IMG/VR virus record: IMGVR_UViG_2606217106_000021
DNA from: a virus
Taxonomy: Duplodnaviria > Heunggongvirae > Uroviricota > Caudoviricetes
Length of the DNA: 20,633 nucleotides
Reading direction: 5' to 3' (one strand)
In this document: one piece after another, positions 1,335 to 20,633 of the stretch
How positions within the stretch are numbered: the stretch's first letter is position 1
How the letters are laid out: each line of letters starts with the position of its first letter
Notes under the pieces: generated by a model
What the model saw: the letters and a program-made list of their open reading frames with translations, nothing else
Databases searched by the model: none
Told to the model about the DNA's origin: nothing
Translations under genes and position numbers: made by a program

Positions 1335-1919
1335 TTACTCCCTGACAGGGTTCGTAGGCCACTCAATATCAGGTGCAGTTGATGTATCAACACGGTTCAG
1401 CAACACCCGATACTTTTTCCAGGCTTCCAGCAATGAGGTTTCTTCCTCCGTTGCAATTTCCAGATCTGCAGCATCCTGAAGCGGCGCAATATGCTCACTG
1501 GCTACCTGCATCAGGTTGTTTTTTGTTTCTTCCGCCTCCCGGATCCGGAACAGTTTTTCTGCTTCTGCATCTTTCACCCAGGTTGTGCCGTTCCACTTCT
1601 GAAACTCCCCTTCTGGCGATAACCAGGTAACATTTTCCGGTAATAAGCCGAGTTCAGAAATAAATAACGCGTCGCCGGAAGCTACGTCATAAACCGTTTT
1701 ACCCCGATGATCTTCAACGAGATGCCACGATGCCTCATCACTGTTGAAAACAGCCACAAAGCCAGCCGGAATATCTGGCGGTGCAATATCGGTACTGTTT
1801 GCTGGCAGACCTGTATGAGGCGGAATATATGCGTCACCTTCACCAATAAATTCATTAGTTCCGGCCAGCAGATTATAAATTTTTATGGTCCGTGCTTGTT
1901 CACTCATTCTGAATGCCAT
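1335..1919 (-). CDS. tfa: Tail fibre assembly protein Tfa (194 aa)
   Basis: Near full-length identity to lambda Tfa as I recall it ([78 protein letters not shown]...), same 194-aa length. Its ATG overlaps the stf stop as TAATG at 1917-1921. Confidence 0.93.
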
Positions 1920-4900
1920 TATGCAAGCCTCACAATATAGTTAAATGCGATGTTTTTGACGGTGTTTTCCGCGTTACCCGCAGCGTTAACGGTGATGGTG
2001 TGTCCATGTGAACCAATCGCAACGGAGTGCGTATGCGCACCAATACCTACAGTATGTGCATGTGCGCCAGAACTTGCTGCAGTACCAGACAGCGAGTGGG
2101 TATGAGCACCTGCTGACTGTGTCTGAATACGTTGATAATACGATCTATAGGAAGAAGTCCCCGGGCTTACTTGATACTGTGAATTCTGGACATAAGTGAA
2201 CCCACCGCCATCATAAAATGCTAACGCAGAACCGCCGCCTCCTGGCCAACGAATACCATTACCATGAGTATGAACACCGGCAGACCCCGTAGAGCCACTC
2301 AGACTGTGCGTATGCGCCCCGGTGTTATTCGTGGATTTAGTGCCGTAATCAAACGACGATGTGGTTTTCGTCCCCAAATCCGTACTGGATGCGCTGGCGC
2401 TGTGGGTATGCGATTTAATGCCGTCCTGTTCCTGAGACAATACGGCCCGACCACTGGCAGGTTTGCCCTTAATCGTCCAGCCACGCATATCAGGGATCAC
2501 GCCTGACGGATAAGCGGCTGCAAGTTTCGGGTAGGCAGATTTGTTAAAAGTCTGCCCCTGCATCAGGGCATAACCAGACGGAACGGTATCTGATGGCCAC
2601 GGGATTGGTGCGCCAACTGGGTAGCTTTCTGGTGGAAGATTTTTCGAGGTATAAACTTCTGCCCAGTCTTCCTCAAAACCATAACCGTCTCTTGAAGAAC
2701 GGTAGAACAGACCACGATTTCTGTAATGCGCCTTCATCTGCAGGGTCCGGCAACTTCCGACTCCGGTATAGAAGTTAACCAGAATATAGCTGTCGCCAGA
2801 GCGGGTGACATTGTAAGCGCCTGATTCGGCATTCCAGGGAACGGCTCCATCCGAATCCGCATAAGCCCCCGTCGAACGTCGGGCAAATGCACCAATATTT
2901 TCCGACGTGAGGTTAATATCCGCCGAGCCATCAAACTTAACACCGTTAATTTTTGGGGCTGCCGCAAGTTTCGTCGCGGTATCGGCGTTCCCCTTCAGTG
3001 CCCCGGTGATCCCATCAGTAACAGACAACGGACCTGAAATAGTCCCTCCAGTCGTTGGCAGCGCTCCAATATCTGATGGTGTAGGTTTCTGATGTGAGCT
3101 ATACATCGTATAAACAACACCACCGGTAACGCTGGAAGGCTTACTCGCTGAATATGTTGGCGAGGTATAAATAGAAACTGACGCATTTGTAGTACAATCC
3201 CAATGGATATTTACACTCGTCGCATAATTGCCAATCTCAACGTAAATATCATATGTATCGCCGGATGTGTTGATCCAGGCGAAATTCGTTAATCCGACGG
3301 CTGTACGCTTCCACAAAGCTCCGGTAATCCCTTTGGGCTTTCCATTGCCTGCTCGTAGAACCAGTTCTGAAATGCCTGCCTGCTGTGGGGAGCCGACGTT
3401 GTAACCAGCGCCACCAATCAATGCGATGTAAACGATGGAACTCGCTTGTGGCATGGTAACCGTTGCCAGTTTGAACCACCCTGCCCCGCCAGAGAAAGAG
3501 ATCGTTACTGAATTTAAAGTGCCAATATCTTTCGGTGTTAATGTTATATCCGCAGTCAGTGCTTTCCCGTTAACTTTTCGGTTAGATGGTACCCTGCCAT
3601 TCGCATTGTCATTCGCTGCTTTAACTGCCTTCGGTGTCGCGGCAAGCGTTTCAGATGTGCTGTTGGTCGCACTGCTGAGCTGTACTATCCCCTTTTTCGT
3701 CGTACTTGCATCCTCAAGCGCCACGGCGGATGCAATATCCTCTGCCCGTTTTGCCGCTGTCTCGGCGCGCGTTGCCGCGGATTCCGCCGTACTTTTGCTC
3801 TGTGCTGCCGCCGTCGCACTGCCAGCTGCCTCTGTCGCCTTCGTGGATGCTGTCGTGGCGCTGCCCTTCGCTGCTGACGCCTGTCTGGTCGCCTCATCTT
3901 TTGAAGCTGACGCCGATGATGCCGATGACGCCGCCGAACTGGCGGACGATGCGGCAGCCGTTTTTGAGGATTCTGCGCTGGTTTCCGACGCTTTCGCGTT
4001 CGTCTCGGATGTCTTCGCTGCGGAAGCAGACCTTGCTGCTGCACTGGCCTGTTCAGTGGCTTTGCCAGCCTTCGTTGTGGCTGTTGAAGCGGATGATGCG
4101 GCGCTTTCTGCCGATTTTCCGGCGGCGGTGGCACTGGCTGAGGCCTGCCCGGCACTTGTTGACGCGGCACTGGCAGATGATGCAGCCGCTGTTTTTGAGC
4201 CTGCCGCAGCTGAGGCACTCTGTCCCGCTGCCGTTTCAGAAGACCTGGCGTTCGTCTCGGACGTCTTTGCCGCCTTCGCGGAATTTCCTGCCGCCGTTGC
4301 CGAGGAAGCTGCACTACTGGCACTTGATGATGCATTCGTTTCTGAAGATTTCGCTGCCTCTTTTGAGGCCGCCGCACCCCGTGCCGAGGTGGCAGCTTCT
4401 GACGCCTTCGTGGTCGCTGTGGATGCAGAAGTGGCTGCCGATTTTTGTGATGCTGCGGCATTCGTTTCTGACGTTTTCGCGGCACTGGCGCTGGTAGCTG
4501 CCGCGCTTTTTGATGACTCTGCAGCAGCAGCACTTTTTGCTGCTTCACGGGCCTTTGTCGATGCCGTTCCTGCGCTGGAAGACGCTGACTGAGCCGACGA
4601 CGCGGCCTGTCCGGCTGGCGTGCTGGCGGCACGTGCTGAGGCTGCAGCATCGGTTGCATGAGTTGCCGCCTCGCTGGCTGATGCACTGGCATCGCTGGCT
4701 GATTTTTTCGCGGCTGCCGTATTCTGTGCAACCGCGGAGGCGTTACGTGACACCTCTTCCACCATCTGCTCAAAGCGGCGCAGTGCCTCCGGTCGGACAT
4801 CATCCTCCGTCATGGCACCGAGAAAATCATTCAGCGTACCTGGTCTGGAACCTTCATAGACGGTAATGGTCCCGGCATGTGAAGGCGGAAAACCTTCAAC

Positions 4901-5089
4901 CAGCAGGGTGACGCTGTACTGACCATGCTCAACATCCATGCTGTAACGTCCGGCTTCATCCGGATTTTCAGAGGCCACCGTGTTCACCACCACCGTGCTG
5001 CTGGTTCGTCTGGCCTTCAGCACAATGGTGCAGTTCTGTACTGGTTTTCCTGTGCCATCTTTAAGCACGCCAGAAATTTTTACTGTCAT
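1919..5089 (-). CDS. stf: Side tail fibre protein Stf (1056 aa), unsplit
   Basis: The N-terminal ~120 aa ([22 protein letters not shown]...[14 protein letters not shown]) and the C-terminal ~250 aa (HxH repeats, ...[24 protein letters not shown]) match lambda Stf as recalled. A long Ala/Ser/Thr-rich repetitive central region accounts for the spurious antisense ORFs. The middle of the protein (about residues 480-800) does not match my recollection of lambda. Confidence 0.9.
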
Positions 5090-5103
5090 ACTTTTCCACC
5101 AAT

Positions 5104-5135
5104 AAAAAAAGCCCGCAGCAGTGACGCCACGGGCT
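5104..5135 (-). terminator. Hairpin plus T7 run immediately upstream of the stf start (minus-strand sense)
   Basis: Minus strand reads agcccg-(14-nt loop)-cgggct followed by ttttttt, ending about 15 nt before the stf ATG. The stem is only 6 bp with a large loop, so it is of modest strength. Confidence 0.4.
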
Positions 5136-5240
5136 TCAGGACAGTGTAACTTTACGTTTCCTCAAACGCAGTTCACCCCATAAAGTGGATGAACCTGCGT
5201 ATCATAACAATATTTACAGAAGATAAATCGGCGTCTGTTG

Positions 5241-6164
5241 TCAGAAACGGTAACGGGAAGAAGCCACCACTCCTTCAGACAACGCCTGTGCATCCTTAAT
5301 GGCTCCATAGCAACGAATCCCCTCTGCTGCCGTATTCCCCAGCACCAGCGTGCCCTCCGGCAGATAACGTTTTTCGGTACCGTCCTCTGCCACATAAGAC
5401 GTTTTCGCTACCACAATGGCCAGATCGCCGTAATACCCCTTGAAGGATACCACTGCGCCCAGATCTTTCACTGCCGTTTCGAGTTGTGAATTTGAACCGC
5501 GACGGGTATCCATTTTTTCGCGGAAAAGCTTAAAGCCATTCAGCAGACGCCAGACGGTACCGTCCATAATGGCAATATTCACAAGACCACTGGCCTGATC
5601 ACAGAAAAGGTCGATATCATATGTCGGGTCGAACGTGTCACGATCCTGTTTTGACCACTCCTTACCGCTACCTTGTATGATGTTATTCTTCGTCGATCGG
5701 CCAAAATCGACTTCAATTTTCTCGAACTGGTCTCCTTCCATCGTATATTTGCCATACAGCACGGCATTCACCGCCTGCATTTCTTCCACCTGCACAATAG
5801 CGTGCTCTTCCTGTTTGAGGTTATCAGTGATGATACGCAGACGACGGTAGGCCGGGTCGTTCAGCTGAGCCGGATCTTCACCGGGAAGGCGCTCAACCGC
5901 CTGCTGGTAATTAAATTCGTGTTTCGGCTTGACGTAGCCAGGACGCAACACGCGGGTTTCACCACCACGATGGCGCAGCACTTTTCCTTCAACGATCGGG
6001 GAGACATAGGCCGCCACCGGCGTTTTTCCGGTAATTTTGTCCAGCATCACCTCTTCGGTGTGGAAATTCACCGTACGGCGGAAAAACAGCTCCAGAAATA
6101 GCGCACGGAATTTAACTTTTTGTTCGGTATAACCGAGTAACTGGCGGGTCGTAAACAATCCCAT
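5241..6164 (-). CDS. E: Major capsid protein E, C-terminally truncated (307 aa, lambda E is 341 aa)
   Basis: Matches lambda E over most of its length (YVSPIV.G.V.R.RGG, PGYVKPKHE, QVEEMQAV.AVL.GKYTM, DTRRGSNS.LETAVKDLG, GDVAIVV). It ends ...SSRYRF* where lambda continues for about 35 more residues. Confidence 0.85.
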   Translation of the reverse strand: MGLFTTRQLLGYTEQKVKFRALFLELFFRRTVNFHTEEVMLDKITGKTPVAAYVSPIVEGKVLRHRGGETRVLRPGYVKPKHEFNYQQAVERLPGEDPAQLNDPAYRRLRIITDNLKQEEHAIVQVEEMQAVNAVLYGKYTMEGDQFEKIEVDFGRSTKNNIIQGSGKEWSKQDRDTFDPTYDIDLFCDQASGLVNIAIMDGTVWRLLNGFKLFREKMDTRRGSNSQLETAVKDLGAVVSFKGYYGDLAIVVAKTSYVAEDGTEKRYLPEGTLVLGNTAAEGIRCYGAIKDAQALSEGVVASSRYRF

Positions 6165-6221
6165 AAATCAGTTCCTTTCATTCAGAAATCAGTCAGGCCA
6201 CCATGGTGGCCTGATAACGTG

Positions 6222-6569
6222 TTACGGCAGAGCCGCGTGACTCAGGGCTGTGCCGGCAAAGGCATTTGCCTTTTTGTGTTCATCCACACTGTCAGGCCAG
6301 CGGATTGCCTCCGTCGCAAAGGTCCCCGACTTGTAATAGGTCAGCACCGTCTCTGTGCCTTCAAGCGGCAGTACCAGTATGCCAACCGCACTACCGGCTT
6401 TCTGTCCATCCCAGACCACCAGTTTCCCGGTGGCTTCATCCAGCATCAGGGGCGTCAGAGCCGGTGTTGCAGAAGAAATCCCGCTGCTGCCTGTGGCGGT
6501 ATGAGCCGGATCATTACCAGCAAAAATACGTACTTCCGCACGCTGTTCAGTGATGGTTTTCGTCACCAT
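6222..6569 (-). CDS. D: Head decoration protein D (115 aa)
   Basis: Matches lambda D as recalled: DPAHTAT, TPLMLD, KLV(A)WDG, AVGIL, TYYKSGTF, AFAGTA. Confidence 0.85.
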   Translation of the reverse strand: MVTKTITEQRAEVRIFAGNDPAHTATGSSGISSATPALTPLMLDEATGKLVVWDGQKAGSAVGILVLPLEGTETVLTYYKSGTFATEAIRWPDSVDEHKKANAFAGTALSHAALP

Positions 6570-6605
6570 TTTGTTAAAACCTCATATTGATGGTCAGCAC
6601 TGACT

Positions 6606-6944
6606 TCATGGCATGGCCATGAGCATTTTCACGTCCGCATCACCGTCTGCTGACGTCTGTGACACGCCACCCCGCACCGCTGCCGGTGAATGATTCGCCA
6701 TGAAATGTTCAAACAGGGCGGTTGTGGATGCAGAGACCGGTTCGGCCTTACCTGATCCCGCAGCCAGCACAGCCCGGGCGTTCTCCACGGTCATTCCCGG
6801 GCAGGCCGCCAGTTTTTCAGCCTGCGCTTCTGCCCCTTTTGCCTCATCCAGGGCCATGATCTGATCACGAAGTGAGGGCCCGGCATCCGCCAGTGGTGCA
6901 GCCGCCAGGATCGGGCGGGCTTTTTCCACCGTCATCTCCGGCAT
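6606..6944 (-). CDS. Nu3-like scaffolding segment (112 aa), in a different frame from C
   Basis: Contains PGMTVEKARPILAAAP and a second PGMTVENARAVLAAGS copy, resembling the lambda C/Nu3 C-terminal region (ETPGMTVKTARRILAAAP). It overlaps the C stop by 13 nt and is out of frame with it. Confidence 0.55.
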   Translation of the reverse strand: MPEMTVEKARPILAAAPLADAGPSLRDQIMALDEAKGAEAQAEKLAACPGMTVENARAVLAAGSGKAEPVSASTTALFEHFMANHSPAAVRGGVSQTSADGDADVKMLMAMP

Positions 6945-7546
6945 CGCCGCCAGCGTTGACCGGCATAGCTGACATGGCTCATCATCACGCCAATGGAGCC
7001 GATACGGGATGTCTGGGTAACCAGCCGTCGGGAGCAGGCCGACGCCAGCAGCATGGCTGCAGAACAGGCCGTGTCATTGCACAGTGCCCAGACCGGCTTC
7101 TGCTGACGGAGGCGGTAAATCATGTCAGCGCAGTCAAACGCGCCGGCGGCCTGCCCGCCCGGACTGTCAATGTCCAGCAGTACGCCCCGCACCTGGCTAT
7201 CCGCCATTGCCTGCTGAAGACAGGCGACAATACCGTCATAGCCTGTCATTCCGGAAAATGGCCGCATACCACCCAGCCGGTGCACCAGCGTGCCGGTCAC
7301 CGGCAGTACAGCAATACCGTTCACCACCCGGTAAACACGGGCCGGTCGTTTACCTCCGGCCATGTACTCGTCCGTTTCAGCCAGCATCCCGGGAGCATCA
7401 AGCTGTACCTGCTGTTGCGGTACCGAAAGACTTGCTGCCCCCATCTCGCGCCCCAGCGCGCAAAAGAAAACCCGCGCATAGGCGGGCTCCAGAAGCAGCG
7501 GTTCATTGAATGCTGCTGCAATAATGTGTGAAAGATTACGTCTCAC
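6932..7546 (-). CDS. C: Head maturation protease C, protease domain only (204 aa, lambda C is about 439 aa); probably disrupted
   Basis: The N-terminus (AFNEPLLLEPAYARVFFCAL ... GMTGYDGI ... GVLLDIDSPGG ... AGAFDCAD ... KPVWAL ... RRLVTQT.R.GSIGVM) matches lambda C (S49-type). The ORF stops where lambda C continues for more than 200 residues. Confidence 0.7.
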   Translation of the reverse strand: MRRNLSHIIAAAFNEPLLLEPAYARVFFCALGREMGAASLSVPQQQVQLDAPGMLAETDEYMAGGKRPARVYRVVNGIAVLPVTGTLVHRLGGMRPFSGMTGYDGIVACLQQAMADSQVRGVLLDIDSPGGQAAGAFDCADMIYRLRQQKPVWALCNDTACSAAMLLASACSRRLVTQTSRIGSIGVMMSHVSYAGQRWRRCRR

Positions 7547-9128
7547 GTGGTGTTGTCTCCTCTTCCGGCCTGCGACTCTCCGCTATCTGCTGCTGATACG
7601 CCTGCGCTATCCACACCGGACGTGAGAGTCCGGCTTTTTGCCGCTCAGCAGATTCCCTGACCTGCTGGCGGAAAATGTCCTGATAATCCTCGCCCATCAG
7701 CGCCAGCTCTTTCTCATACGTGCTCAGTCCGGCCTCAATGCGCATCACTGATTCCTGGACTTCCTTGAGCCCGTCAATGGCCATTCTTCCGGCACCAATC
7801 CACTCTGCCCGTGACCAGGCTGATCGCGCCTGATAAAAATCAAAACGTGCCCGTGGCGGACGAATAATCCCCCGAAGAAGTGCCTCTTCCAGCCAGCAGG
7901 AAAACATCTGCGTGGCCAGCCGGGCCGCAATAAATTTTCGTCGCCCCATAAAATAGCGCCACGACTCATTGGCGGAGGCGCGGGCACTTGAGTAACTGAC
8001 CTTCGAGTAATCACGGGACAACTGTTCGTAGGAAACGCCAAGACCGGCGGCGATATACCGCAGCAGCGCCTGTTCAAGCGCAGAAAATCCATTGTCTGAA
8101 TCCTGCGCAGTCTGTAGTTTCAGATCATCACCAGGGAAAAGGTGCGGAATTTTGACACCGCCCAGTGTCACGTTATTCGTGTCATACCAGCTGGAGAACT
8201 TCTCCAGAATATTAATAAGCGGATTATCCTTCTGCTCCTGTGGCGCGCCGGCGATATATTCAAAGGCCTTTTCGGTATCAAGTTCACTTTCAATCGTCGC
8301 TGCATACATCGCCTTCACTATGGCCGACTGAAGCTGTGTTGCCTGCAGGGAATCGAGCATCTTCAGCCGTTCCATGACGCTGTAAAACTGATTAGCCCCA
8401 CGGGTCTGCCCGTCCTCCACCGGCTCGAAAATATGCAGCATGGCCGGACGCCCGGTGGGAAGTTCACGCGGGATCCGTTCCCATCGTCCACTCCCAGAGA
8501 ACGGAAAATCATCCTCACAAATATGGTACGCGACGGCACGGCCATATCGATCGACCTCCACACCGGCCCGCAGAAAACGGTTCCCCATACCGTGTCCAGG
8601 CGTGTCCACCCGTTTCGGACTCACGGCTTTAAAACGCGTACGGAATAACTGCGTGGTTTCCGTATCCCAGACCGGCTGCACAAAGATTTCGCCGTTAAAC
8701 GCATGAACGCCCACACCTTCACGGATAAATTCCGTGAACGTGCGTTTTCCTTCCACGTCGATCTCGCCAAACATCCCTTCGGCGTATTCCGACCAGGCCG
8801 CCTCCACCTCATCGACAAAGCTTTTTGCTGCGGTCTCCCGCATCCCCAGCCAGCGCCAGTTCGGACGGTAGCTGATCAGAAACATATGCCCGACAATATG
8901 ATCCTTATGCAGGGCCACCGCATTAGCCGCTATCCCGTTATTGCGCACCAGATCATCTGCCCGGGCATTCCCCAGACGCAACGCAGGCAGCAGGGCTGCA
9001 TCGGCACTCTGCGCCGGTGGCAACCACTCCGCCATTTGCCCGCCAAATCCTGCGCCGCCCCCGTTGTAGCTGAGACTCTCACGAAGCGGAACGCCGTTCA
9101 CATCAATCAGGACAGGCGTTCGTTTCAT
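7536..9128 (-). CDS. B: Portal protein B (530 aa)
   Basis: Matches lambda B along its length (GNARADDLVRNNG.AANA, FEPVEDGQTRGAN.FYSVME, LQSAIVKAMYAATIESELDT, LLRYIAAGLGVSYEQLSR, GRMAIDGLKEVQE). Lambda B is 533 aa. Confidence 0.93.
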   Translation of the reverse strand: MKRTPVLIDVNGVPLRESLSYNGGGAGFGGQMAEWLPPAQSADAALLPALRLGNARADDLVRNNGIAANAVALHKDHIVGHMFLISYRPNWRWLGMRETAAKSFVDEVEAAWSEYAEGMFGEIDVEGKRTFTEFIREGVGVHAFNGEIFVQPVWDTETTQLFRTRFKAVSPKRVDTPGHGMGNRFLRAGVEVDRYGRAVAYHICEDDFPFSGSGRWERIPRELPTGRPAMLHIFEPVEDGQTRGANQFYSVMERLKMLDSLQATQLQSAIVKAMYAATIESELDTEKAFEYIAGAPQEQKDNPLINILEKFSSWYDTNNVTLGGVKIPHLFPGDDLKLQTAQDSDNGFSALEQALLRYIAAGLGVSYEQLSRDYSKVSYSSARASANESWRYFMGRRKFIAARLATQMFSCWLEEALLRGIIRPPRARFDFYQARSAWSRAEWIGAGRMAIDGLKEVQESVMRIEAGLSTYEKELALMGEDYQDIFRQQVRESAERQKAGLSRPVWIAQAYQQQIAESRRPEEETTPRET

Positions 9129-9331
9129 AACCTCACTCCCAGCGGACGACGGCGACGTCGGGTTGTCCCCAGTACCGACTCCGCATCATTGATCGCCCGG
9201 TTAAGCTCATCCAGAGAAGCCGCCGTATATTCAATTCTGCGACCATCTTTCTGGACAGACACCACCCGTTTACCGGTTAATAAATCAAGGCGCGCCTGAC
9301 GCAGCGCCTGTAGTTCAGCGACTGTAACCAT
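9125..9331 (-). CDS. W: Head-tail joining protein W (68 aa)
   Basis: [23 protein letters not shown] matches lambda W ([23 protein letters not shown]). Its stop overlaps the B start as ATGA. Confidence 0.8.
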
Positions 9332-11408
9332 TCACTCCTCCGGACAGCTTCGCTGCCAGTTCTTTAAGGGTTGGCCGGGTCGTCTCTTCTTCCCGGGATT
9401 TTGCCAGTACAGCCAGATCAAGCTGCCAGCGTTGCACGGACACACGTAATGCCGCATAGGCATACACCAGGCAGTCCAGCGCTTCGTTACGCCGCTTTTT
9501 GTTATCCCACAGCAGACGCATCTTTCCTTTTTCCCACTTCTCCACAAGCTCTTCCGCGACCAGTTGCTGCGCCTCTGTCTGCGAAAAAATCTCCGGATCA
9601 TCAGGAAAATGGATGGCATACGACGTGGCTTCATCCGCAGGAGTGGGATCGGCTTTCATACGGGCATAGAGAATTTCTTTTGCGGTGTCCGTCCCCACTT
9701 CACACAGATACACGCCCCGCTGATTGCGGGTTTTCGGCATGGTGATCACCGGCTTGCCATAGACAGATGCGCCTTTTACCGGCAGCACCCGGAAAACACC
9801 GTGTTTTTTTGACCTCTGATAGACAATTTCACCATCGATCCCCCCGGTGTCCCAGCAGACACGGGAAATGGTCATTTCGGTTCCGTCTGCATGGCAGTAT
9901 TTTTTGTTGATCGCCGCATCCACACGTAACAGCGTCTCTTCCTCATCGGGACGGCCCATAATGATGATTTTATCCACCAGAAAAGCTTCCTCTCCCGGTG
10001 CCCATCCCCAGACATACATCTCAAAACGGTTTCGCTGCGAGTCAATGCCCGCCGTCAGATAAACCACCCGGGCTGGCACCGCCGCCGTGTAATGCACGAC
10101 CTTATCCATCAGTACCTGGTGATCGAGTTTTTCGCCCACGGCCTCTTCAGAAGCCACATCGGATGCTTTCGCGATTTCAGTTTTCACAGCATCAAGATGT
10201 ACGGGTGATATATCAGGGTATTTACGCTGCAGTGTCTGAGGGACACGGACAAGGATCCCTGATATATTCTGTGCCACTCGCTGAAAGATGTAGGTAAATA
10301 ACTCCGTCTCGAGGACAAGGCCTTCCTCACGAGCATTTTTCAGCTCCTGTGCATCGGCCTGTGCCTTCGTCAGTCGGTAACGTTCGTAATCAATGGTGCC
10401 GGGCTGAAGGTCTGATTCGCTGGCAGCCCTCAAATCCTCGATCTCTTTACGGAGTTTTTCGTTTTCAATATCAGCTTCCCTCTGCGCATACCACTGAATG
10501 GCAGCAGTTGTATCAAAAACTGATTCAGTCCCTTTCCCTCCACCAGAAACTAGTGGTAACCCCTGACTCTGCCAGGCGGTGACTGATGCCGGACTTCCAC
10601 CGTGACACTGCGCCGCCAGCCCGGCAAGGTCAGCACGGAACTGCTGTACCATTGCAAGAAATGCTGCTGGCTGCTGGGCGTAACTGGCATTCGTCATATC
10701 GAATTCCCCCTGCATCCAGCATATCGCCAGCAAAACGTTTTTCGGGTTTTTCTGCAATGCTGCCTTCGTGCGGAAAAGCAGATCCTGATATAACGGCTTA
10801 CCCACTCCCCAGCGAGCCGAATCCTGACTGGCCCCCGTGGACTCGCTGAATGTCCCCTCCGTGCCCTGGGTGAATGCCGAACCACCACGACAGCATGGTA
10901 CCAGCAGGATCCCCGCGTTATTAGGGATATACGGAAGCAGTTTTTTGGCAATATGTAAGCCCTGTCCGACACAGCCGTACTGCCCTTTGCTCAGGTCAGC
11001 CCGGGGATGGTTAATCGTACTCATATCCTGAACATCATGCAGACAATGGTCAGCAGGAATGATGTCGTTAAATACGCATACTTCACCACCGGGAGTCACT
11101 GTGTTACGACGGGCCAGTTGCTTAATGCGCGGATGGGGCGCATCGTATGAATCCGGCAGCGGAAGCCCTTCACCGTAAGCCATGGCATTGGACTGCCCGG
11201 CCAGTACGATGACGTAGTACCAATCCGGCTCAGTTGCACCACTGACCACCACATCACCTTCTGCTGCAATCGCCTGCATCAGGGTATAAGGGGTTATGGC
11301 CACCGGACTACCAAACGGCTGCCAGCCCTCCTTCAGTTTTTGTGTCAGTCGTTTCGCAAGGTCTGACGGCGATACCGCCCTGACCACGTCATAGTGTTTA
11401 AATGCCAT
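9315..11408 (-). CDS. Chimeric ORF (697 aa): DUF1737-like/SASA-type esterase-like N-terminal region joined to the terminase large subunit (gpA) C-terminal domain
   Basis: Residues about 430-697 match lambda gpA's C-terminal region ([64 protein letters not shown]). Residues about 60-300 carry a [11 protein letters not shown] motif typical of SASA/SGNH sialate O-acetylesterases, which I associate with prophage nanS-p genes. A coiled-coil-like linker (about 310-420) matches neither. No terminase ATPase N-terminal region and no upstream nu1 are present. Confidence 0.7.
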
Positions 11409-11600
11409 GAATCCTCCCGGCCGGGATAATATTGTGAGTAAAATAAGGAGCGGGCTGAAGTCCGGAAGTTACAGGACAATGGCAGAAGAGAGACGACAGC
11501 CCGCAATTCGAAAAAGACCGCGCAGTTGCGCAGAGTGATTACTATGGGGTATTATTCGCCAGCTGAAATATTACTTCACGTTTTATTGTTTATTCCTTGC

Positions 11601-11630
11601 CGCCCGCGTCTCCCAGCGCGGGCTTTTTTT
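11601..11630 (+). terminator. Plus-strand rho-independent terminator-like hairpin
   Basis: cccgcg-tctcccag-cgcggg followed by cttttttt on the plus strand. Confidence 0.5.
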
Positions 11631-11635
11631 GCCCA

Positions 11636-11885
11636 CAAGAAAACCCCTCCGGAGAGGGGCTAAAGCCGCGTATCTGTATCATCATGCACATGGTGCCGGG
11701 TGCCTCCCGGTGAGTTCAGCCCGGTGCCACTAAACCCGCGTCATTCTCGTTTTGATAATCAGAGATTATACCGTCACCAGTCGCCCCTCCGCTCAGGGGG
11801 ATTCACCATGCGAAATTTTTTTAACAAATGCCCAGTCTGACAGGCAACTGTCAACTTACTGAATTGTGAGCAACATAGCATTTAA
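11636..11885. repeat. Repeat unit A of a diverged direct repeat (partner at about 12122-12340)
   Basis: Shares identical blocks with unit B: aaaacccctccggagaggggct, catggtgccgggtgcctcccggtga, cccctccgcNcagggggattcaccatg, ttttaacaaa, gtcaac, ctgaattNtgag. Sequence between the blocks has diverged. Confidence 0.7.
11637..11660 (-). terminator. Minus-strand rho-independent terminator (repeat unit A)
   Basis: Minus strand reads cccctc-tccg-gagggg followed by ttttcttg. It is back to back with the plus-strand terminator at 11601-11630. Confidence 0.55.
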
Positions 11886-11904
11886 CGGGGAACCTGTTTT
11901 CTGC

Positions 11905-11934
11905 AGTAAAAAGGCCCACCGGAGCGGATGGGCC
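11905..11934 (-). terminator. Minus-strand terminator-like hairpin
   Basis: ggccca-ccggagcgga-tgggcc; on the minus strand it is followed by tttttactg. Confidence 0.45.
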
Positions 11935-12121
11935 TGGAAGGATAGCGGTCATGTGATGCCGGTTTCCCGGTAACTCAGCACCGGTATCTGAGTCAACGTT
12001 TTCTCTACTGGGTCATTTCCGATACGCCCTGCCTGCTGACAGGCTTTCATCACATCTGAAAATATAGCACCCTGACTGATACTGTAGTACCTAAGGTTCC
12101 AGAAACTGTGATGTATCCGGC

Positions 12122-12148
12122 ACAGAAAAGCCCCTCCGGAGAGGGGCT
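12122..12148 (-). terminator. Minus-strand rho-independent terminator (repeat unit B)
   Basis: Minus strand reads gcccctc-tccg-gaggggc, a perfect 7-bp GC stem, followed by ttttctg. Confidence 0.6.
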
Positions 12149-12340
12149 GGAGAGTGGCGCTATGTGCCATTGCATGGTGCCGGGTGCCTCCCGGTGAATT
12201 CAGTACCAGCACCTGAATCCGCGATTATCCCATATACCTACTCGCTGATTGCCCCTCCGCACAGGGGGATTCACCATGCCAGTTTCTTTTAACAAACTCC
12301 CCGCAAACCAGACAACAGTCAACCGCCTGAATTATGAGAC
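12122..12340. repeat. Repeat unit B (partner of 11636-11885)
   Basis: Same conserved hairpin blocks as unit A. The hairpin cccctccgcacaggggg differs from unit A only in the loop (a versus t). Confidence 0.7.
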
Positions 12341-12344
12341 ATTT

Positions 12345-12368
12345 AAAAAAAAGCCCGCAAAAGCGAGC
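12345..12368 (-). terminator. Minus-strand terminator-like hairpin just downstream of the tRNA cluster
   Basis: Minus strand reads gctcgc-tttt-gcgggc (6 bp with one G-U pair) followed by a T8 run. Confidence 0.5.
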
Positions 12369-12383
12369 CAGGGAAAATAAGTG

Positions 12384-12460
12384 TGGCGCGTTGTACTGGA
12401 TTCGAACCAGTGACCGATTGCTTAGAAGGCAATTGCTCTGTCCGGCTGAGCTAACAACGC
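12384..12460 (-). tRNA. argO: tRNA-Arg (anticodon UCU)
   Basis: Reverse complement folds as a cloverleaf: acceptor GCGTTGT/ACAACGC, T-loop GGTTCGAATCC, anticodon loop CTTCTAA, 3' GCCA. The symbol is by analogy with the ileZ-argN-argO cluster of Stx-type lambdoid phages and is not verified. Confidence 0.85.
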
Positions 12461-12473
12461 ATGATGCAGATAA

Positions 12474-12550
12474 TGGACCGCCATCGGGGACTTGAACCCC
12501 GCGCAGCCAGCTTCGAAGGCTGGCGCTCTTTCCTGATGAGCTAATGGCGG
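12474..12550 (-). tRNA. argN: tRNA-Arg (anticodon UCG)
   Basis: Reverse complement: acceptor CCGCCAT/ATGGCGG, T-arm CGGGG-TTCAAGT-CCCCG, anticodon loop CTTCGAA, 3' TCCA. Symbol by analogy only. Confidence 0.8.
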
Positions 12551-12557
12551 TATGTGA

Positions 12558-12633
12558 TGGTGGCCCTTGCTGGATTTGAACCAGCGACCTGGCGATTATG
12601 AGTCGCTCGCTCTCACCACTGAGCTAAAGGGCC
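12558..12633 (-). tRNA. ileZ: tRNA with CAU anticodon, Ile2 (lysidine) type
   Basis: Reverse complement GGCCCTTTAGCTCAGTGGTGAGAGCGAGCGACTCATAATCGCCAGGTCGCTGGTTCAAATCCAGCAAGGGCCACCA closely resembles E. coli ileX-type tRNA (anticodon loop CTCATAA). Symbol by analogy only. Confidence 0.8.
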
Positions 12634-12661
12634 GAGCCAAAAAATAATAATCAGATGAAAA

Positions 12662-13375
12662 TCAATAATCAAGCCCTTGCCTGGATACATATCTGTCTGG
12701 CGGGAAGCCATAATAGCGGTGAAATACAGAAATAAAGTAGGACCTGCTTGAATAACCGCATTTTTCTGCTATAGCCTGTCCATATCCATGCCGGGAACAT
12801 AACATATTTACAGCAACACGCATCCGCTCTTCCAGCAACAAGCGACTGAACATGCCCCCTTCATTTTTCAGTTTTGTCTTTAACAAACTCTCACTCATAT
12901 GCAACTGTAGAGCAATCGCACCAAGCGTCCAGCTTGCTGATATATCTGTCTGAATTATCGCCCTGACTTTGGCACTTATGCTGGATAAACATCCACTTAA
13001 AAACAATGACATCCGTTCATCTGTTTCAAACAGAGACAGGCAGGCCATCATAAGAAACATATCCGTGGCCTCTCCGGAAAATCCCTGGCTGGTAATTAAA
13101 GCCGCAGCCAACGCAGGATTGTTGGGTTCCAGCAACAGGTAAAGCGGAATGTCAGTCAGACGAGTCCTCGTCAGCTTATGCTGACTTTCCAGATATTGAC
13201 TTACGACGGATTCGCTTATATCGACAATTTTAACTTTGCCATAATGCATAAGGAAAAGCTCCCTGATGCATTTGGTGGCCAGAACAACTGAGCCTGGCTT
13301 AAGTGACAACGTATCCTTTTCAAGAAAAATATTAATTGGGGAGCAAACCATGATAACTGAACAGACAACAGCCAT
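12662..13375 (-). CDS. AraC/XylS-family transcriptional regulator, AppY-like (237 aa)
   Basis: C-terminal AraC-type HTH (AIAEKCGYSSRSYFISVFHRYYGFPP). The N-terminus MAVVCSVIMVC...KIVDI resembles AppY (MDYVCSVVFIC...RIVDI, recalled from memory). AT-rich; the 13376-13509 gap upstream could hold its own promoter. Confidence 0.85.
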   Translation of the reverse strand: MAVVCSVIMVCSPINIFLEKDTLSLKPGSVVLATKCIRELFLMHYGKVKIVDISESVVSQYLESQHKLTRTRLTDIPLYLLLEPNNPALAAALITSQGFSGEATDMFLMMACLSLFETDERMSLFLSGCLSSISAKVRAIIQTDISASWTLGAIALQLHMSESLLKTKLKNEGGMFSRLLLEERMRVAVNMLCSRHGYGQAIAEKCGYSSRSYFISVFHRYYGFPPDRYVSRQGLDY

Positions 13376-13495
13376 TATAATTTTACTTTCATTAGCAATT
13401 GGTTAGCTCAATTATAGCCCCAAAAGGTAAATTATCATCAACACATAAGCAAAGGACTGACAGGTGTCGCCCCCCCACCAGCCGCCCATTCACCA

Positions 13496-13523
13496 CAAAT
13501 AAAAAGCCTTCAGGACTGAAGGC
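13496..13523 (-). terminator. Minus-strand terminator overlapping the stop of the 65-aa ORF
   Basis: Stem gccttca/tgaaggc with a ggac loop; on the minus strand it is followed by tttttatttg. Confidence 0.45.
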
Positions 13524-13707
13524 GTCTGTAACAACCGCACTGATAGTCTGCCAGACCCGCCATAACAAGCTGGGTCAGTATTAACTGGCAGCGTTCGCGT
13601 GAAAGGTAAGTATTCTGCGCAATCTCCCCGACTGTCGCCGGTTCGGTAACGCTTAATTCATCAAACACAACTCTGGCGGTTTCTGTCATATCCTGCTGTT
13701 TCAGCAT
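13510..13707 (-). CDS. Hypothetical small protein (65 aa), possibly a DNA-binding protein
   Basis: ORF with its own terminator hairpin at its 3' end. I did not recognise a family; the idea of a small helix-turn-helix fold is only an impression from composition. Confidence 0.4.
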   Translation of the reverse strand: MLKQQDMTETARVVFDELSVTEPATVGEIAQNTYLSRERCQLILTQLVMAGLADYQCGCYRRLQS

Positions 13708-13831
13708 GTCTTTTTACCCTTTCCGGTTAACGTGACATACCAATAACTCTTGTCTAAAAAGCCAGCAAGATAAAAAGCCAGTATTCACGACCACCAGCGT
13801 GTTTACTGTACTGCACCAAGTTTACAGGTAC

Positions 13832-13853
13832 AAAAAACCCGCTCAGTGGCGGG
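13832..13853 (-). terminator. Minus-strand rho-independent terminator after the ~205-aa cargo gene
   Basis: Minus strand reads cccgc-cactga-gcggg followed by ttttttg. Confidence 0.55.
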
Positions 13854-13985
13854 TTTAAGTTGTGTGGCGAAGTAACCACTCTTAACACACTAATAGCATT
13901 TTTGTTATAACACAAGTAGCTCATTCAGTATTTTTAGAATCTTGACTTTCTTAAGCACGGCGAACTCTGAATACCAAACATAAAA

Positions 13986-14603
13986 TCAATTATCTTCCAG
14001 GCCGGATGCTATCAACGAAAGCCTCTCAAAAAACGCTGTAGCAGCCTTGTCCAAAGTTGAATAAGTACTGTATTCTCCGTGTTCGGGACCAACCACTACC
14101 CATGGTCGTCTTTTTGGGATTCGGGACTTCTCAGAAATCACTGTTCCAGATATACCAATATCAATTGTTACACCTGTTATTATTTTCTCTTCATCTCTTT
14201 CCCTGAACTCAATTGCCATAAATGCCGTTTTTTTTCGTTTCCCGTTTTTAAAAAAATCAAATAAAGCAAAGCGATGCTCATTAAAATCAACACCCCATCG
14301 TCCTTCAGGATAAAGGGCATGAAAGTTGTCATTTACGCTCTGCATCGTCTCATAAGCTTTAACTTCTAAATCTCCATAGTGCATAGATACCGCGCAGGAG
14401 TCACTGGGTAACTGTATTTTCCCAAGATTGAAAACCTTTACTGCTCCAGAACTATGGCATCTTGCCCGCAATTTATCCCCATTTATACTAATCGGAGAAA
14501 TATTCCTTAATGTTCCGGGCTGGCTCCCTCCTAAGTAAACGACTGTTAAAGATTGCTTATTTTCAATTGCATCAACTAATACATGCTCTACATTTTTATC
14601 CAT
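13986..14603 (-). CDS. Hypothetical protein (about 205 aa from MDKNVEH...; six-frame ORF extends to 14630), unrecognised family
   Basis: AT-rich ORF directly downstream of Q. GGGAGG lies 5 nt before the ATG at 14601-14603. Its own terminator is at 13832-13853. No motif recognised. Confidence 0.6.
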   Translation of the reverse strand: MDKNVEHVLVDAIENKQSLTVVYLGGSQPGTLRNISPISINGDKLRARCHSSGAVKVFNLGKIQLPSDSCAVSMHYGDLEVKAYETMQSVNDNFHALYPEGRWGVDFNEHRFALFDFFKNGKRKKTAFMAIEFRERDEEKIITGVTIDIGISGTVISEKSRIPKRRPWVVVGPEHGEYSTYSTLDKAATAFFERLSLIASGLEDN

Positions 14604-14678: not shown

Positions 14679-15065
14679 CTATATGTAACAATCAATTTCT
14701 AAAGATACCCCCAACATTGCCAGACAACCGTCAATAAACCCTTCAGCTTTCTGCAGTCTGATAACAACCTGATTAAGTGATATCCCCAGTTTTACCCCCA
14801 ACACCCGTAATGTAACCCCATACACATAATACATTTCCAGTAATTCGTATTGATACGGTTCCTTTTTCTTAAGAACTGTCATCGCAGAGCTAATGATCAG
14901 GCCATCGTCATCGCTACATTGCGGGCGGGATTTTACTTTCGAAGGAATTAATCCCTTAAAACCTGCAGCAACAGATGACCATTCCACATCCTCGTGATTA
15001 TTTGCCACCCATGCCCCCCAACGTTCAAGAACCATTTGAATATCACGCATCAACTTTCTCCACAA
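14679..15065 (-). CDS. Late-gene antiterminator Q (phage 82/21 type, QuuD-like; 128 aa)
   Basis: MRDIQMVLERWGAW...GFKGLIPSKVKSRPQC...LQKAEGFIDG resembles my recollection of E. coli QuuD. An alternative start is at M6 (15050). Confidence 0.8.
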   Translation of the reverse strand: MWRKLMRDIQMVLERWGAWVANNHEDVEWSSVAAGFKGLIPSKVKSRPQCSDDDGLIISSAMTVLKKKEPYQYELLEMYYVYGVTLRVLGVKLGISLNQVVIRLQKAEGFIDGCLAMLGVSLEIDCYI

Positions 15066-19720: not shown

Positions 19721-19941
19721 GCAGCACCTCCGAGATGCTTCATGTTTTTTCCGGAGCAAAAGGCTATAAGCGGCATACTGACGCGGTAATTACGGCCCAG
19801 CGGTTCACAAATCACCTTCTGACATTCACGGTCAACCAGGCTAACACGTAGAACATGCCCTGCAGGCGTGGTGTACCACTGACCCGGACGAGGACAACAG
19901 AAAGTATGATTGGTAAACCGTTTGAAAATATTCCGGATCAT
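19717..19941 (-). CDS. Hypothetical small Cys-containing protein (74 aa)
   Basis: Its start overlaps the Rha stop and its stop overlaps the O-like start, both as ATGA. No family recognised. Confidence 0.4.
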   Translation of the reverse strand: MIRNIFKRFTNHTFCCPRPGQWYTTPAGHVLRVSLVDRECQKVICEPLGRNYRVSMPLIAFCSGKNMKHLGGAA

Positions 19942-20483
19942 TTACGCCCCCTTACCTCTGAAGGGTTCAGCGACAAATTTATGAGACTGGCCAGTAGCGC
20001 CGCGTCGTTGATGCGGTCATACAGACTTACAGCCAGCGGGGATTCGGCTTTTGCCAACATGGGATAAAGCTGCTGCAGCCAGACCTTGTGGATTACCGAC
20101 AGGTGGGAGTAAAGCACGCTGGCGTTATCTGCGGCATCGCTCAGCGTGGATGGCTTTGAAAGCAGTTTTTCCATCTGGTTAAAGGCATTTATGTATGCCT
20201 CTTTGAACCGGGCAGCACGTTTACCAGTGAAGCCCATGGCAAGAAACGCAAAACCGTCGCGGGTGATTTGGTAACAAGGGAGTTTGCGGCCTGATGCGTC
20301 GGTGTATTCACTTAACACAAAATTGTGTTCAGTAAATTCAGCGGAACATTCGAGGTTTCTAATTCTATCTAAAACCCGCTCATGCCGTTTAGTAAAGTAA
20401 TTAGCTACTGCAAGAGATGTGGTGACAACGCGACCATTGATAATCGTGATTTCAGGGTGAGATTGGGTTGGGAGAGTAGTCAT
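19938..20483 (-). CDS. Rha-family phage regulatory protein (about 181 aa from MTTLPTQ...; six-frame ORF extends to 20624)
   Basis: ITIINGRVVTTSLAVANYFTKRHERVLDRIRNLE fits the Rha N-terminal domain pattern (..V.TSR.IAE.FGKRH.NVLR.I.NL). The start is uncertain because the window ends at 20633. Confidence 0.7.
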   Translation of the reverse strand: MTTLPTQSHPEITIINGRVVTTSLAVANYFTKRHERVLDRIRNLECSAEFTEHNFVLSEYTDASGRKLPCYQITRDGFAFLAMGFTGKRAARFKEAYINAFNQMEKLLSKPSTLSDAADNASVLYSHLSVIHKVWLQQLYPMLAKAESPLAVSLYDRINDAALLASLINLSLNPSEVRGRK

Positions 20484-20633
20484 GGTGACAGCCCCTATGT
20501 TGAATTCAATGAACTCACCACCAAGGCTTTCCACGACCATATAGGTGGTGAGACGTACAGGGGTGGAAATACCGGTCAACATAGAACCCGGCCCAACCGA
20601 AGTTGGCCCTGCACGCCCCACCATAATTTGGGC

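Follow-up and report, generated by a model that had tools for sequence, protein, structure and literature searches.

A cluster of catalogued prophage small RNA genes with tandem STnc100 copies in an ORF-poor segment of a phage sequence

The ORF-poor segment and its neighbours

What is carried by the kilobase that separates a tRNA cluster from the next long ORF downstream in the 20,633-nucleotide viral sequence analysed here (the window)? The initial annotation had called this stretch ORF-poor, and no credible ORF was found in 11409-12383, the longest (87 amino acids, 11949-12212, minus strand) running across two terminators. The segment is a cluster of prophage sRNA genes that have already been catalogued, and is not new; a mildly new element is confined to the diverged middle copy. 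The overall interpretation, to which a probability of about 0.78 is assigned, is that positions 11409-12383 constitute an insertion-tolerant ("moron") segment of the late operon of a defective lambdoid prophage, with four sRNA genes and no protein genes: three follow one another in the same orientation on the late (minus) strand, and the fourth converges with them from the plus strand. The features of the region are as follows:

9315-11408, minus strand: chimeric ORF joining a NanS-p N-terminus, Nu1 and a GpA nuclease domain (Pfam, BLAST segment map)
11437-11630, plus strand: predicted sRNA gene, with terminator 11602-11623 plus T-run and a promoter-like site at 11402-11430
11518-11533, minus strand: terminator-like hairpin CTGCGCAACTGCGCGG plus T-run (terminator scan, alignment)
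11631-11840, minus strand: STnc100 copy A (Rfam RF02076, 161 bits, E 1.1e-36, model positions 1-206)
11906-12079, minus strand: copy B, diverged and STnc100-like (RF02076, 30.1 bits, E 2.3e-4), with terminator 11935-11912
12118-12308, minus strand: STnc100 copy C (RF02076, 136.3 bits, E 2.3e-30, model positions 1-206)
12344-12369, minus strand: predicted intrinsic terminator 3' of the last tRNA (stem 12369-12352 plus T-run)
12384-12633, minus strand: tRNA cluster of tRNA-Met/Ile (CAT), tRNA-Arg (TCG) and tRNA-Arg (TCT) (ARAGORN, Rfam tRNA)

The location is that of STnc100 genes in Stx phages and prophages, which share the order stx or tRNAs, STnc100, antisense sRNA, nanS-p: in the window, Q (14679-15065) and the tRNAs lie on the upstream side and the nanS-p N-terminus (11408) lies downstream. 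The gene order matches that of Sakai Sp5, Sp4, Stx1 phages, Stx2 phages and Fels-1. The tRNA cluster, which forms the upstream border of the region in the direction of late transcription, is equivalent to ileZ-argN-argO of Stx phages and has the same order as in Sp5 and Sp4. On the downstream side, the initial annotation had expected head genes; the neighbour is instead the chimeric ORF, which has Pfam matches to DUF1737, SASA, Phage_Nu1 and GpA_nuclease and whose first 262 amino acids correspond to the N-terminal part of a NanS-p-type sialate esterase, evidence that a deletion removed the lysis cassette together with some of the terminase genes. The accompanying suggestion that Stx-type phages carry stx and the lysis genes at this position was correct for stx, which lies between the tRNAs and the STnc100 copy, but not for the lysis genes, which in Stx phages lie beyond nanS-p and in the window are deleted. 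The moron site 3' of pR' is known to carry convergent Hfq-binding sRNAs, in a layout described by Tree et al. 2014 (PMC4104026).

Repeat units, terminators and the STnc100 fold

Two diverged direct repeats had been proposed from the sequence. The repeats themselves are evident from three collinear blocks at a spacing of 468-487 bp (88 nt with 78%, 31 nt with 97% and 28 nt with 89% identity) and from a BLAST alignment of unit A with unit C (71% identity across 196 nt); their number must be raised to three units by the addition of the diverged copy between them. The hairpin CACCGGGAGGCACCCGGCACCATG and the terminator stem-loop AGCCCCTCTCCGGAGGGG do not differ between units A and C, and another hairpin, CCCCCTG(A/T)GCGGAGGGG, differs solely in its loop, all as originally reported. 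In copy C, helix P1 (GCAUGGUG/CACCAUGC) is accompanied by hairpin P2, helix P4 and hairpin P5, with a single-stranded tail leading into the terminator 12148-12129; the leader of this copy resembles that of copy A as far as 12338 on the C side and 11870 on the A side. Copy A has the same core with a different central arm and 3' tail, ending in terminator 11661-11642. Both copies match the full RF02076 model above its gathering score of 47 bits, and these full-length matches, together with the folds, support the proposal that the units are paralogous structured RNAs ending at minus-strand terminators. A terminator hairpin with U-run is predicted on every unit, and the 3' ends first suggested (11637 and 12122) agree with those predicted here (~11634-11640 and ~12121-12127). 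In the RNA-family layout each minus-strand RNA is ~175-235 nt long.

Terminator-like sites are dense in this part of the window, with 12 found in 11300-12700 against 1.4 +/- 1.2 in shuffled sequences. The claim of at least four tandem minus-strand terminators is borne out by five distinct ones (12369-12352, 12148-12129, 11935-11912, 11661-11642 and 11533-11518), and the bidirectional pair noted at 11601-11660 resolves into plus-strand 11602-11623 back to back with minus-strand 11661-11642. Since the plus-strand gene is convergent, these back-to-back terminators are the 3' ends of two sRNA genes. The hairpin 11533-11518, also conserved in Sakai Sp5 and Sp4, falls inside the plus-strand gene; it may block transcription that would otherwise continue into nanS-p, or may simply reflect, on the complementary strand, a hairpin internal to the plus-strand RNA.

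A covariation analysis across the family, one of the checks put forward with the initial annotation, used a structure-blind MAFFT alignment of 14 family cores, which are related sequences of a mosaic family: 94.4% of cells pair, compared with 39-46% when the partners are slid. Both sides have changed in 17 of the 26 pairs, part of these changes being module swaps and not point substitutions, as the family is mosaic. None of 500 shuffles matched the observed values on all five measures. Changes on both sides are found in 7/8 pairs of P4 and 6/8 pairs of P1; helices P1, P2 and P4 are backed by compensatory changes, P5 being predicted but too invariant to covary, and RNAalifold independently yields P1, P2, P4 and P5. 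The structure of STnc100 is thus present, with these four helices, a terminator and support from covariation. Folding of units A and C, another of the suggested checks, gave minimum free energy (MFE) structures that reproduce the family structure. Single-sequence folding z-scores were modest (-1.8 to -1.9). Between copies A and C, P4 differs by one double change from G-C to A-U and by one change from U-G to C-G. The multi-helix core is 110-125 nt long; in this architecture the long-range helix P1 encloses hairpin P2, a variable arm, the covarying P4 and the invariant hairpin P5, and the core is followed by a variable single-stranded tail and then by the typical Hfq-binding element, an intrinsic terminator rich in GC and ending in a U-tail. 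An outer helix P0, pairing leader with tail in the MFE folds of A and C, is not claimed because natural recombinants with swapped tails break it. The near-invariant sequences of the P2 and P5 hairpins are poorly explained by a plain scaffold role.

That the units might be decayed remnants of a protein-coding gene, an origin that the initial annotation had set against its own proposal, or might encode a small protein, is scarcely credible. Antisense to copy C and to PasD2 (an sRNA discussed below), RefSeq has a partial pseudogene for a "hypothetical protein", an antisense ORF (b70) is annotated there in older phage records, ribosome footprints have been reported on some STnc100 copies (PMC5331693), and an ATG in P1 opens a frame starting MVNPP.RRG in most copies. 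This sense frame, however, is 1-46 amino acids long with no conserved C-terminus, neither Fels-1 copy a nor the second allele of copy B has a start codon for it, and its shared N-terminus is a translation of the conserved P1/P2 nucleotides. The antisense frames (37-90 amino acids) shift in frame and in their ends, and a Pfam search of the 87-amino-acid ORF of the window (11949-12212, minus strand) gave no match. The alignment shows that indels separate the copies, and the pattern of substitutions is that of base pairing. With no conserved ORF on either strand, the small-ORF and antisense-ORF readings were dropped.

The diverged middle copy and related sRNA families

Copy B scores 30.1 bits against the gathering score of 47 in a 1.3-kb search, and is therefore filed as a diverged relative and not as a member at the curated threshold. 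All three units are nevertheless placed in a superfamily of STnc100, EcOnc27 and PasD, with A and C as its canonical members here. It shares its architecture with A and C almost without sequence identity, keeping four helices (P1 AUGUGAUG/CAUCACAU, P2 CCUGUC/GGCAGG, P4 GACUCAG/CUGAGUU and P5 CCGG/CCGG) and a terminator. A family-like fold lies within 2.7 kcal/mol of its MFE, and a second allele of copy B retains P2 via compensatory changes. Copy B was found in 673 of 5426 E. coli genomes.

The modularity of the family invites the suggestion that the conserved blocks are recombination linkers among lambdoid phages, with RNA structure incidental: one core is found with swapped leaders, central arms and tails or terminators across phages, and the two alleles of the unit-B type have an identical central block, an alternative tail being present in 5 viral contigs. 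Linkers, however, need identity and not pairing, whereas P1 and P4 vary yet stay paired, and copy B retains its helices despite having almost no identity to A and C; this explanation is highly improbable.

The STnc100 family (RF02076) corresponds to EcOnc27, or sRNA103, of EHEC O157:H7, the STnc100 copy of the Stx2 phage in Tree et al. 2014, which has the same helices, location and kind of terminator, and a convergent antisense sRNA. In Sakai Sp5 the STnc100 copy scores 207.7 bits and adjoins AsxR on the opposite strand; copy A is 82% identical to it over 152 nt. The window differs from the EcOnc27 locus in having two canonical copies and one diverged copy in tandem within 700 bp, in lacking stx, and in tails that differ from that of Sp5. 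Tandem pairs of STnc100 occur in Salmonella Fels-1, whereas BLAST found no copy in Gifsy-2, and the triple arrangement occurs in phage vB_EcoS-640R1 and in E. coli S88. Over 11409-12383, S88, NU14, UM146 and the E. coli type strain (ATCC 11775 / DSM 30083) each show 99.9% identity to the window.

PasD1 and PasD2 of EPEC E2348/69 (EcOnc13 in EHEC) share with the window units a 5' block GCAUGGUGAAUCC plus hairpin, the P1/P4 layout and a site upstream of nanS-p, and a common ancestry of PasD and STnc100 has been described (bioRxiv 10.64898/2026.05.13.724894). They differ in having their own tail with a UGUGAG seed and a different terminator, and PasD2, which serves as a comparator for copy B, scores 41.4 bits on RF02076 in an equal-size search, below the threshold. 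A BLAST search with PasD2 found no match in the window, and only the shared 5' block of ~30 nt matched the Sp5 copy. Assignment of the window units to PasD, for which identity extending through the UGUGAG seed tail and its terminator would be expected, was rejected. Probe sequences for PasA and PasB had no match in the window at up to 3 mismatches. OmrA/OmrB, PrrF1/PrrF2 and Qrr1-5 are likewise paralogous Hfq-dependent sRNAs, adjacent or in several copies, that combine a conserved module with divergent regions (a comparison also informed by the discussion in the preprint of Zhu et al.); such siblings conserve the seed, whereas here the structured 5' core is conserved and the tail, which holds the seed in PasD, is variable.

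A bolder but doubtful reading is that copy B represents an undescribed third lineage of STnc100/PasD, in which the core would have a sequence-specific partner of its own and the tails would be swappable. A protein, another RNA or the ribosome could then be the partner of the structured core; the idea is based on the free covariation of P1 and P4 alongside P2 and P5 sequences that hardly vary between Salmonella Fels-1 and Escherichia. If true, one fixed core would serve a range of interchangeable 3' seed tails, so that a tandem array would provide a prophage with several targeting specificities.

The convergent gene, transcription and distribution

The plus-strand gene is, judged by its sequence, a homologue of EcOnc08/21/42, an Hfq-bound RNA of EHEC, and of the EPEC RNA "E2348C_1409.E2348C_1408.IGR". 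The homology includes the CUUGC(C)G seed beside the terminator, on the same strand and in the same position. Identity to EPEC NC_011601 1444797-1444978(-) and to the Sakai Sp4 locus is ~95% (estimated by eye, not computed), and the sequence of an EHEC Northern probe occurs at 11525-11558 on the plus strand of the window (EPEC sRNA coordinates and probe from PMC8550237 Table S6 and the supplement of PMC4104026). Its 5' end is approximate, at 11437 from the promoter-like site or 11449 from homology to EPEC, and its fold z-score is -2.24. The gene is antisense to the nanS-p 5' UTR. Lambdoid moron pairs such as EcOnc27 with the anti-sRNA AsxR, or those with AgvB, similarly combine a late-strand STnc100 RNA with an opposite Hfq sRNA and shared terminators, but the partner here is longer (~180-270 nt, of the EcOnc08/21/42 type). 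AsxR and AgvB, defined as 51-60-nt RNAs with a conserved 42-nt 3' region, were ruled out as the partner: searches of 11380-12700 with RF02703 and RF02702 gave no match at E<=5, while the same search method detected AsxR in Sp5 (88 bits). A weak OmrA-B-like match (25 bits, 11542-11630) was treated as terminator-driven noise.

Beyond what was observed directly, namely the family fold, membership, covariation, gene layout and distribution, analogy with homologues, for which transcription in lysogens has been published, suggests that copies A, B and C would each have a promoter of their own that is active in the lysogen, would bind Hfq, and would base-pair in trans, via their differing tails, with mRNAs of the host or the prophage. 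The stacked terminators would bar sRNA transcription from downstream genes until Q-modified polymerase reads through. PasD1/2 are Northern-confirmed and Hfq-dependent, with RIL-seq targets (PMC8550237). RNA-seq reads were found for each of the eleven STnc100 copies listed in EDL933, and a Northern blot was positive for one of them (PMC5331693). For EcOnc27, an Hfq peak from cross-linking (CRAC) and a Northern band of ~235/247 nt were reported, the probe matching the STnc100 tail (PMC4104026); the existence of longer or processed forms follows from the start of the peak, 39 nt upstream, and from bands exceeding the 178 nt between GCAUGG and the terminator. No 5' end is asserted for the window copies because the published data for homologues disagree. 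Candidate boxes seen by eye are TGTTAAAAA, 7 nt before GCAUGG, CA(C/T)AAT, ~50 nt upstream, and TGcTATATT, before copy B.

The units could instead be cis-acting parts of the late transcript, either stacked terminators or insulators, or 3'-UTR or processing products of an stx or tRNA message. Such insulators would shield nanS-p, lysis and head genes in the lysogen from transcription arriving from the tRNAs and further upstream; in the case of 3'-UTR or processing products, any stable RNA would be a by-product. Five minus-strand terminator-like hairpins within 1 kb are consistent with this, as are the position of the Sp5 copy, 75 nt after stx2B, the start of the EcOnc27 peak upstream of the conserved core, Northern bands longer than core plus terminator, and the lack of any minus-strand match within the region in a scan for consensus sigma-70 promoters. 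A terminator, however, needs a hairpin and U-run alone, leaving the structured core with its compensatory changes unexplained; PasD2 has a 5' end mapped by RNA-seq to the G of GCAUGG, with a good promoter (TTGACT-18-TAAAAA) directly upstream; most copies retain the TGTTAAAAA box; and homologues give discrete Hfq-dependent bands with many RIL-seq partners. A cis-acting explanation is thus unlikely. The sRNA and cis-acting roles are compatible with each other.

The discovery value of the sRNA cluster is small, RF02076 being already labelled by some annotation pipelines and the layout having been published in 2014. STnc100 is nevertheless among the most abundant annotated enterobacterial sRNA families, and SNPs in EcOnc27, next to stx2, have been reported as predictors of haemolytic uraemic syndrome. 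With its differing tails and a copy that has diverged while preserving the fold, the tandem cluster is a source of natural variants from which the important parts of the RNA could be worked out.

A scan of GTDB species representatives with the pattern GCATGGTGAATCCNCCN{3,8}AGGGGC gave 66 matches, the majority of them to an unrelated Streptomyces sequence, and added little diversity. Rfam confirmed STnc100 in 6 of the 9 non-Streptomyces loci scanned (two E. ruysiae, E. coli ECMA0423, Enterobacter sp. kpr-6, a Proteobacteria MAG and a Xanthomonas pisi contig); this last contig and one from a Veillonella MAG match E. coli sequence at 100% identity and are probably contaminants. The 975-bp segment itself was found in ~350 complete E. 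coli genomes (~6%).

Layout of the prophage and its ORF-poor region

The window is a lambdoid prophage in which gene direction is that of the minus strand. The features around the region of interest are, in late-transcription order:

14679-15065, Q antiterminator gene
12662-13375, AraC-type gene
12384-12633, three tRNA genes
11409-12383, ORF-poor region, between the tRNA genes and the ORF starting at 11408
9315-11408 (-), fusion ORF of 697 aa

The fusion ORF is an in-frame triple chimera of the NanS-p N-terminus (DUF1737 and SASA esterase, aa 1-262), Nu1 (aa 266-419) and, from the large terminase, its nuclease half (GpA nuclease domain, aa 422-656). Two deletions have therefore taken away the remainder of nanS-p, the lysis cassette and the ATPase domain of the terminase. 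Tail genes are also missing, and the prophage is defective. None of the complete E. coli genomes contains the stretch 8800-14000 in a single piece. Within 1919-7546(-) lies a truncated head module, in which an S49 protease of only 204 aa is followed by decoration protein D and major capsid E (307 aa). Directly after this module comes a tail fibre gene of 1056 aa, and thus all tail-shaft and tail-tip genes are absent.

The initial annotation described an ORF-poor region at 11601-12372, with direct repeats of conserved hairpins, tandem minus-strand terminators and a back-to-back terminator pair, and each of these features is borne out. No credible ORF was found in 11409-12383: the longest (87 aa) is without a Pfam match and has two terminators inside it. 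The direct repeats consist of three collinear blocks (88 nt, 78% identity; 31 nt, 97%; 28 nt, 89%) at a spacing of 468-487 bp, in which one hairpin varies solely in a single loop base and the remaining two are identical. A scan of 11300-12700 found 12 terminator-like sites versus 1.4 +/- 1.2 in shuffles, including the following distinct sites:

12369-12352 (-), terminator site
12148-12129 (-), terminator site
11935-11912 (-), terminator site
11661-11642 (-), terminator site
11533-11518 (-), terminator-like hairpin within a plus-strand sRNA gene
11602-11623 (+), terminator site, back to back with 11661-11642

The hairpin at 11533-11518 may be a real late-strand terminator or merely the complement of an internal hairpin of the sRNA.

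STnc100 units, their fold and their covariation

An Rfam scan of the whole window identified two full-length matches to RF02076 ("Gammaproteobacterial sRNA STnc100"; gathering score 47), and a permissive scan of 11380-12700 added a third unit:

11631-11840 (-), copy A, RF02076, 161 bits, E 1e-36
11906-12079 (-), copy B, RF02076, 30.1 bits, E 2e-4 (permissive scan)
12118-12308 (-), copy C, RF02076, 136 bits, E 2e-30

The repeats thus belong to an RNA family that is already known, catalogued and widespread, and their arrangement has been published. Members of this modular family combine identical cores with different leaders, central arms and tails; PasD and STnc100 have been judged to have a common ancestor (Zhu, Shabalina and Storz 2026 preprint).

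Paralogous structured RNAs had been proposed from the sequence, with covariance analysis and RNA folding named as checks, and the full-length Rfam matches, minimum free energy (MFE) folds and covariation all agree with that proposal. In their MFE folds, copies A and C both take the Rfam structure, with modest z-scores (-1.85 and -1.80, respectively). Covariation was assessed in a MAFFT alignment, made with no structural information supplied, of 14 family cores: the three units of the window, the Sakai Sp5 copy, EPEC PasD2, two from E. ruysiae, one from Enterobacter, and those of phages PhiR12_2_star, an Stx1-converting phage, Fels-1 (both tandem copies) and vB_EcoS-640R1 (two units). Across the four core helices (closing helix P1, 5' hairpin P2, helix P4 and last hairpin P5), standard pairs occupy 94.4% of cells, versus 39-46% with the 3' partners slid by 1-3 columns; 17 of the 26 pairs have changes on both sides, and none of 500 column shuffles reached the observed values on any of five measures. 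RNAalifold, run independently on the alignment, returned the same P1, P2, P4 and P5. The most informative helix is P4 (both-side changes in 7/8 pairs), which shows a G-C to A-U double change between copies A and C.

P5 and much of P2 are near-constant in sequence and so speak neither for nor against structure. The P5 hairpin and its junction (CACCGGGAGGCACCCGGCACC), like the P2 hairpin (GAAUCCCCCUGnGCGGAGGGG), are near-invariant between Salmonella Fels-1 and Escherichia (window 11715-11737 and 11783-11811 in copy A, and equivalent positions in copy C), whereas P1 and P4 covary freely. A sequence-specific partner for the invariant hairpins is possible. GGAGG occurs in the P5 loop, and the 5' strand of P2 is rich in C (CCUCC in PasD). 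STnc100 copies have been reported to carry ribosome footprints.

The initial annotation's alternative, that the units are remnants of a decayed protein-coding gene, is rejected because no ORF is conserved across the units on either strand. The frame from the ATG inside P1 varies from 1 to 46 aa, two members being without a start codon, and the antisense frames are inconsistent; a partial "hypothetical protein" in RefSeq, antisense to the units, reflects the conserved P5 nucleotides. The remaining interest lies in the unexplained sequence invariance of the two core hairpins and in the strongly diverged copy B.

The diverged middle copy and a convergent plus-strand sRNA

Copy B has almost no sequence identity to copies A and C, and BLAST recovers only copy B itself, yet it keeps the family parts in family order: a closing helix (AUGUGAUG/CAUCACAU, replacing CAUGGUG/CACCAUG), a 5' hairpin, a 7-bp helix ahead of the last hairpin, a last hairpin (CCGG-GAAA-CCGG, replacing CCGGG-AGGCA-CCCGG) and its own terminator. 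A family-like fold can be imposed on it at a cost of only 2.7 kcal/mol over the MFE. As a yardstick for its score, PasD2, a relative of STnc100 accepted in the literature, obtained 41.4 bits in an equally sized search. Copies of the B type were found in 673 genomes, in 5 phage records and in 118 viral contigs, and they vary very little; one allele is at least 99% identical to the window (344 E. coli records) and another 85.8% identical (327 records), their P2 hairpins differing by compensatory changes.

Downstream of pR', the moron site of lambdoid prophages has convergent genes for Hfq-binding sRNAs, such as EcOnc27 and AsxR, 3' of stx2B in Sp5 (Tree et al. 2014, PMC4104026). Rfam places STnc100 (207.7 bits) on the late strand of the Sakai Sp5 locus, abutting AsxR on the opposite strand, which confirms this arrangement; the EcOnc27 Northern probe matches this STnc100 copy in its 3' tail. 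AsxR and AgvB were rejected as the plus-strand partner in the window, having no Rfam match in the permissive scan. Window 11395-11640(+) aligns at ~95%, by eye, both to the EPEC RNA "E2348C_1409.E2348C_1408.IGR" (RIL-seq; NC_011601 1444797-1444978) and to the Sakai Sp4 locus of EcOnc08/21/42, which is Hfq-bound and about 271 nt on Northern blots. Accordingly, the plus-strand terminator marks where a fourth sRNA gene ends:

~11437/11449-11630 (+), EcOnc08/21/42-type sRNA gene, by homology to the EPEC and Sakai Sp4 loci

This sRNA (11437-11630) is antisense to the 5' UTR of nanS-p, which starts at 11408; a form as long as the one reported in EHEC (~271 nt) would extend over the start codon, and the sRNA could thus also regulate the esterase gene in cis as an antisense RNA.

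Distribution and predicted working of the units

E. coli NMBU-W12E19 carries the 975-bp region at 100% identity, and many other E. coli genomes carry it at 99.9%, including several well-known ExPEC (S88, UM146, IHE3034, NU14, ATCC 11775); at least 80% of it is held by 353 of 5426 complete genomes. The three-unit arrangement occurs also in phage vB_EcoS-640R1 and in S88. STnc100-like sequence was found in 354 phage records, mainly of Stx-converting phages, one of which already uses the Rfam name. Salmonella phage Fels-1 has a tandem pair between Q and holin (~12440-12640 and 12830-13020, plus strand), with P1 helices rebuilt from other sequence (CAGUG/CACUG and UUAUGG/CCGUAA); therefore, tandem duplication of STnc100 is not specific to E. 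coli. An 888-bp Xanthomonas pisi contig is 100% identical to the Sakai Sp5 STnc100 and AsxR, and a Veillonella MAG contig to EPEC PasD2; both are probably E. coli contamination of those assemblies.

In EDL933, RNA-seq reads fall on all 11 listed STnc100 copies, one of which gave a Northern band (PMC5331693). EcOnc27 cross-links to Hfq, without which its longer form is destabilised (PMC4104026). PasD1/2 are abundant and Hfq-dependent, and form RIL-seq chimeras with many mRNAs via a UGUGAG seed in the tail directly ahead of the terminator (PMC8550237). By analogy with these homologues, each unit of the window would be made in the lysogen, would bind Hfq by way of its terminator and U-tail, and may act in trans via a tail that differs among copies A, B and C. 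Going by what is established for lambda Q, the stacked terminators may also shield downstream genes from tRNA and sRNA transcription until Q-modified RNA polymerase reads through. The 5' end of PasD2 RNA is the G of GCAUGG, just after a promoter (TTGACT-18-TAAAAA), and a TGTTAAAAA box is conserved at the place of this promoter in most copies; the Hfq peak and Northern sizes of EcOnc27 imply longer forms than a GCAUGG start (PMC4104026). One review leaves the function of STnc100 blank (PMC9029176), and pairing with stx2B or transport in outer membrane vesicles have been put forward as hypotheses only (PMC12370729).

Other RNA families also match the window. IS009 (RF02111, 226 bits, 1378-1576(-)) lies entirely within the tail-fibre-assembly CDS 1335-1919 (Caudo_TAP), and thus a catalogued "sRNA" family overlaps conserved protein-coding sequence; beyond this fibre-assembly gene is a class-I methyltransferase ORF (612-1280, plus strand). 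A full-length C4 antisense RNA, a P1/P7-type immunity RNA (RF01695, 82 bits, 20541-20628(-)), is located directly upstream of a Rha/Ash-domain ORF (19938-20624), with a slight overlap.
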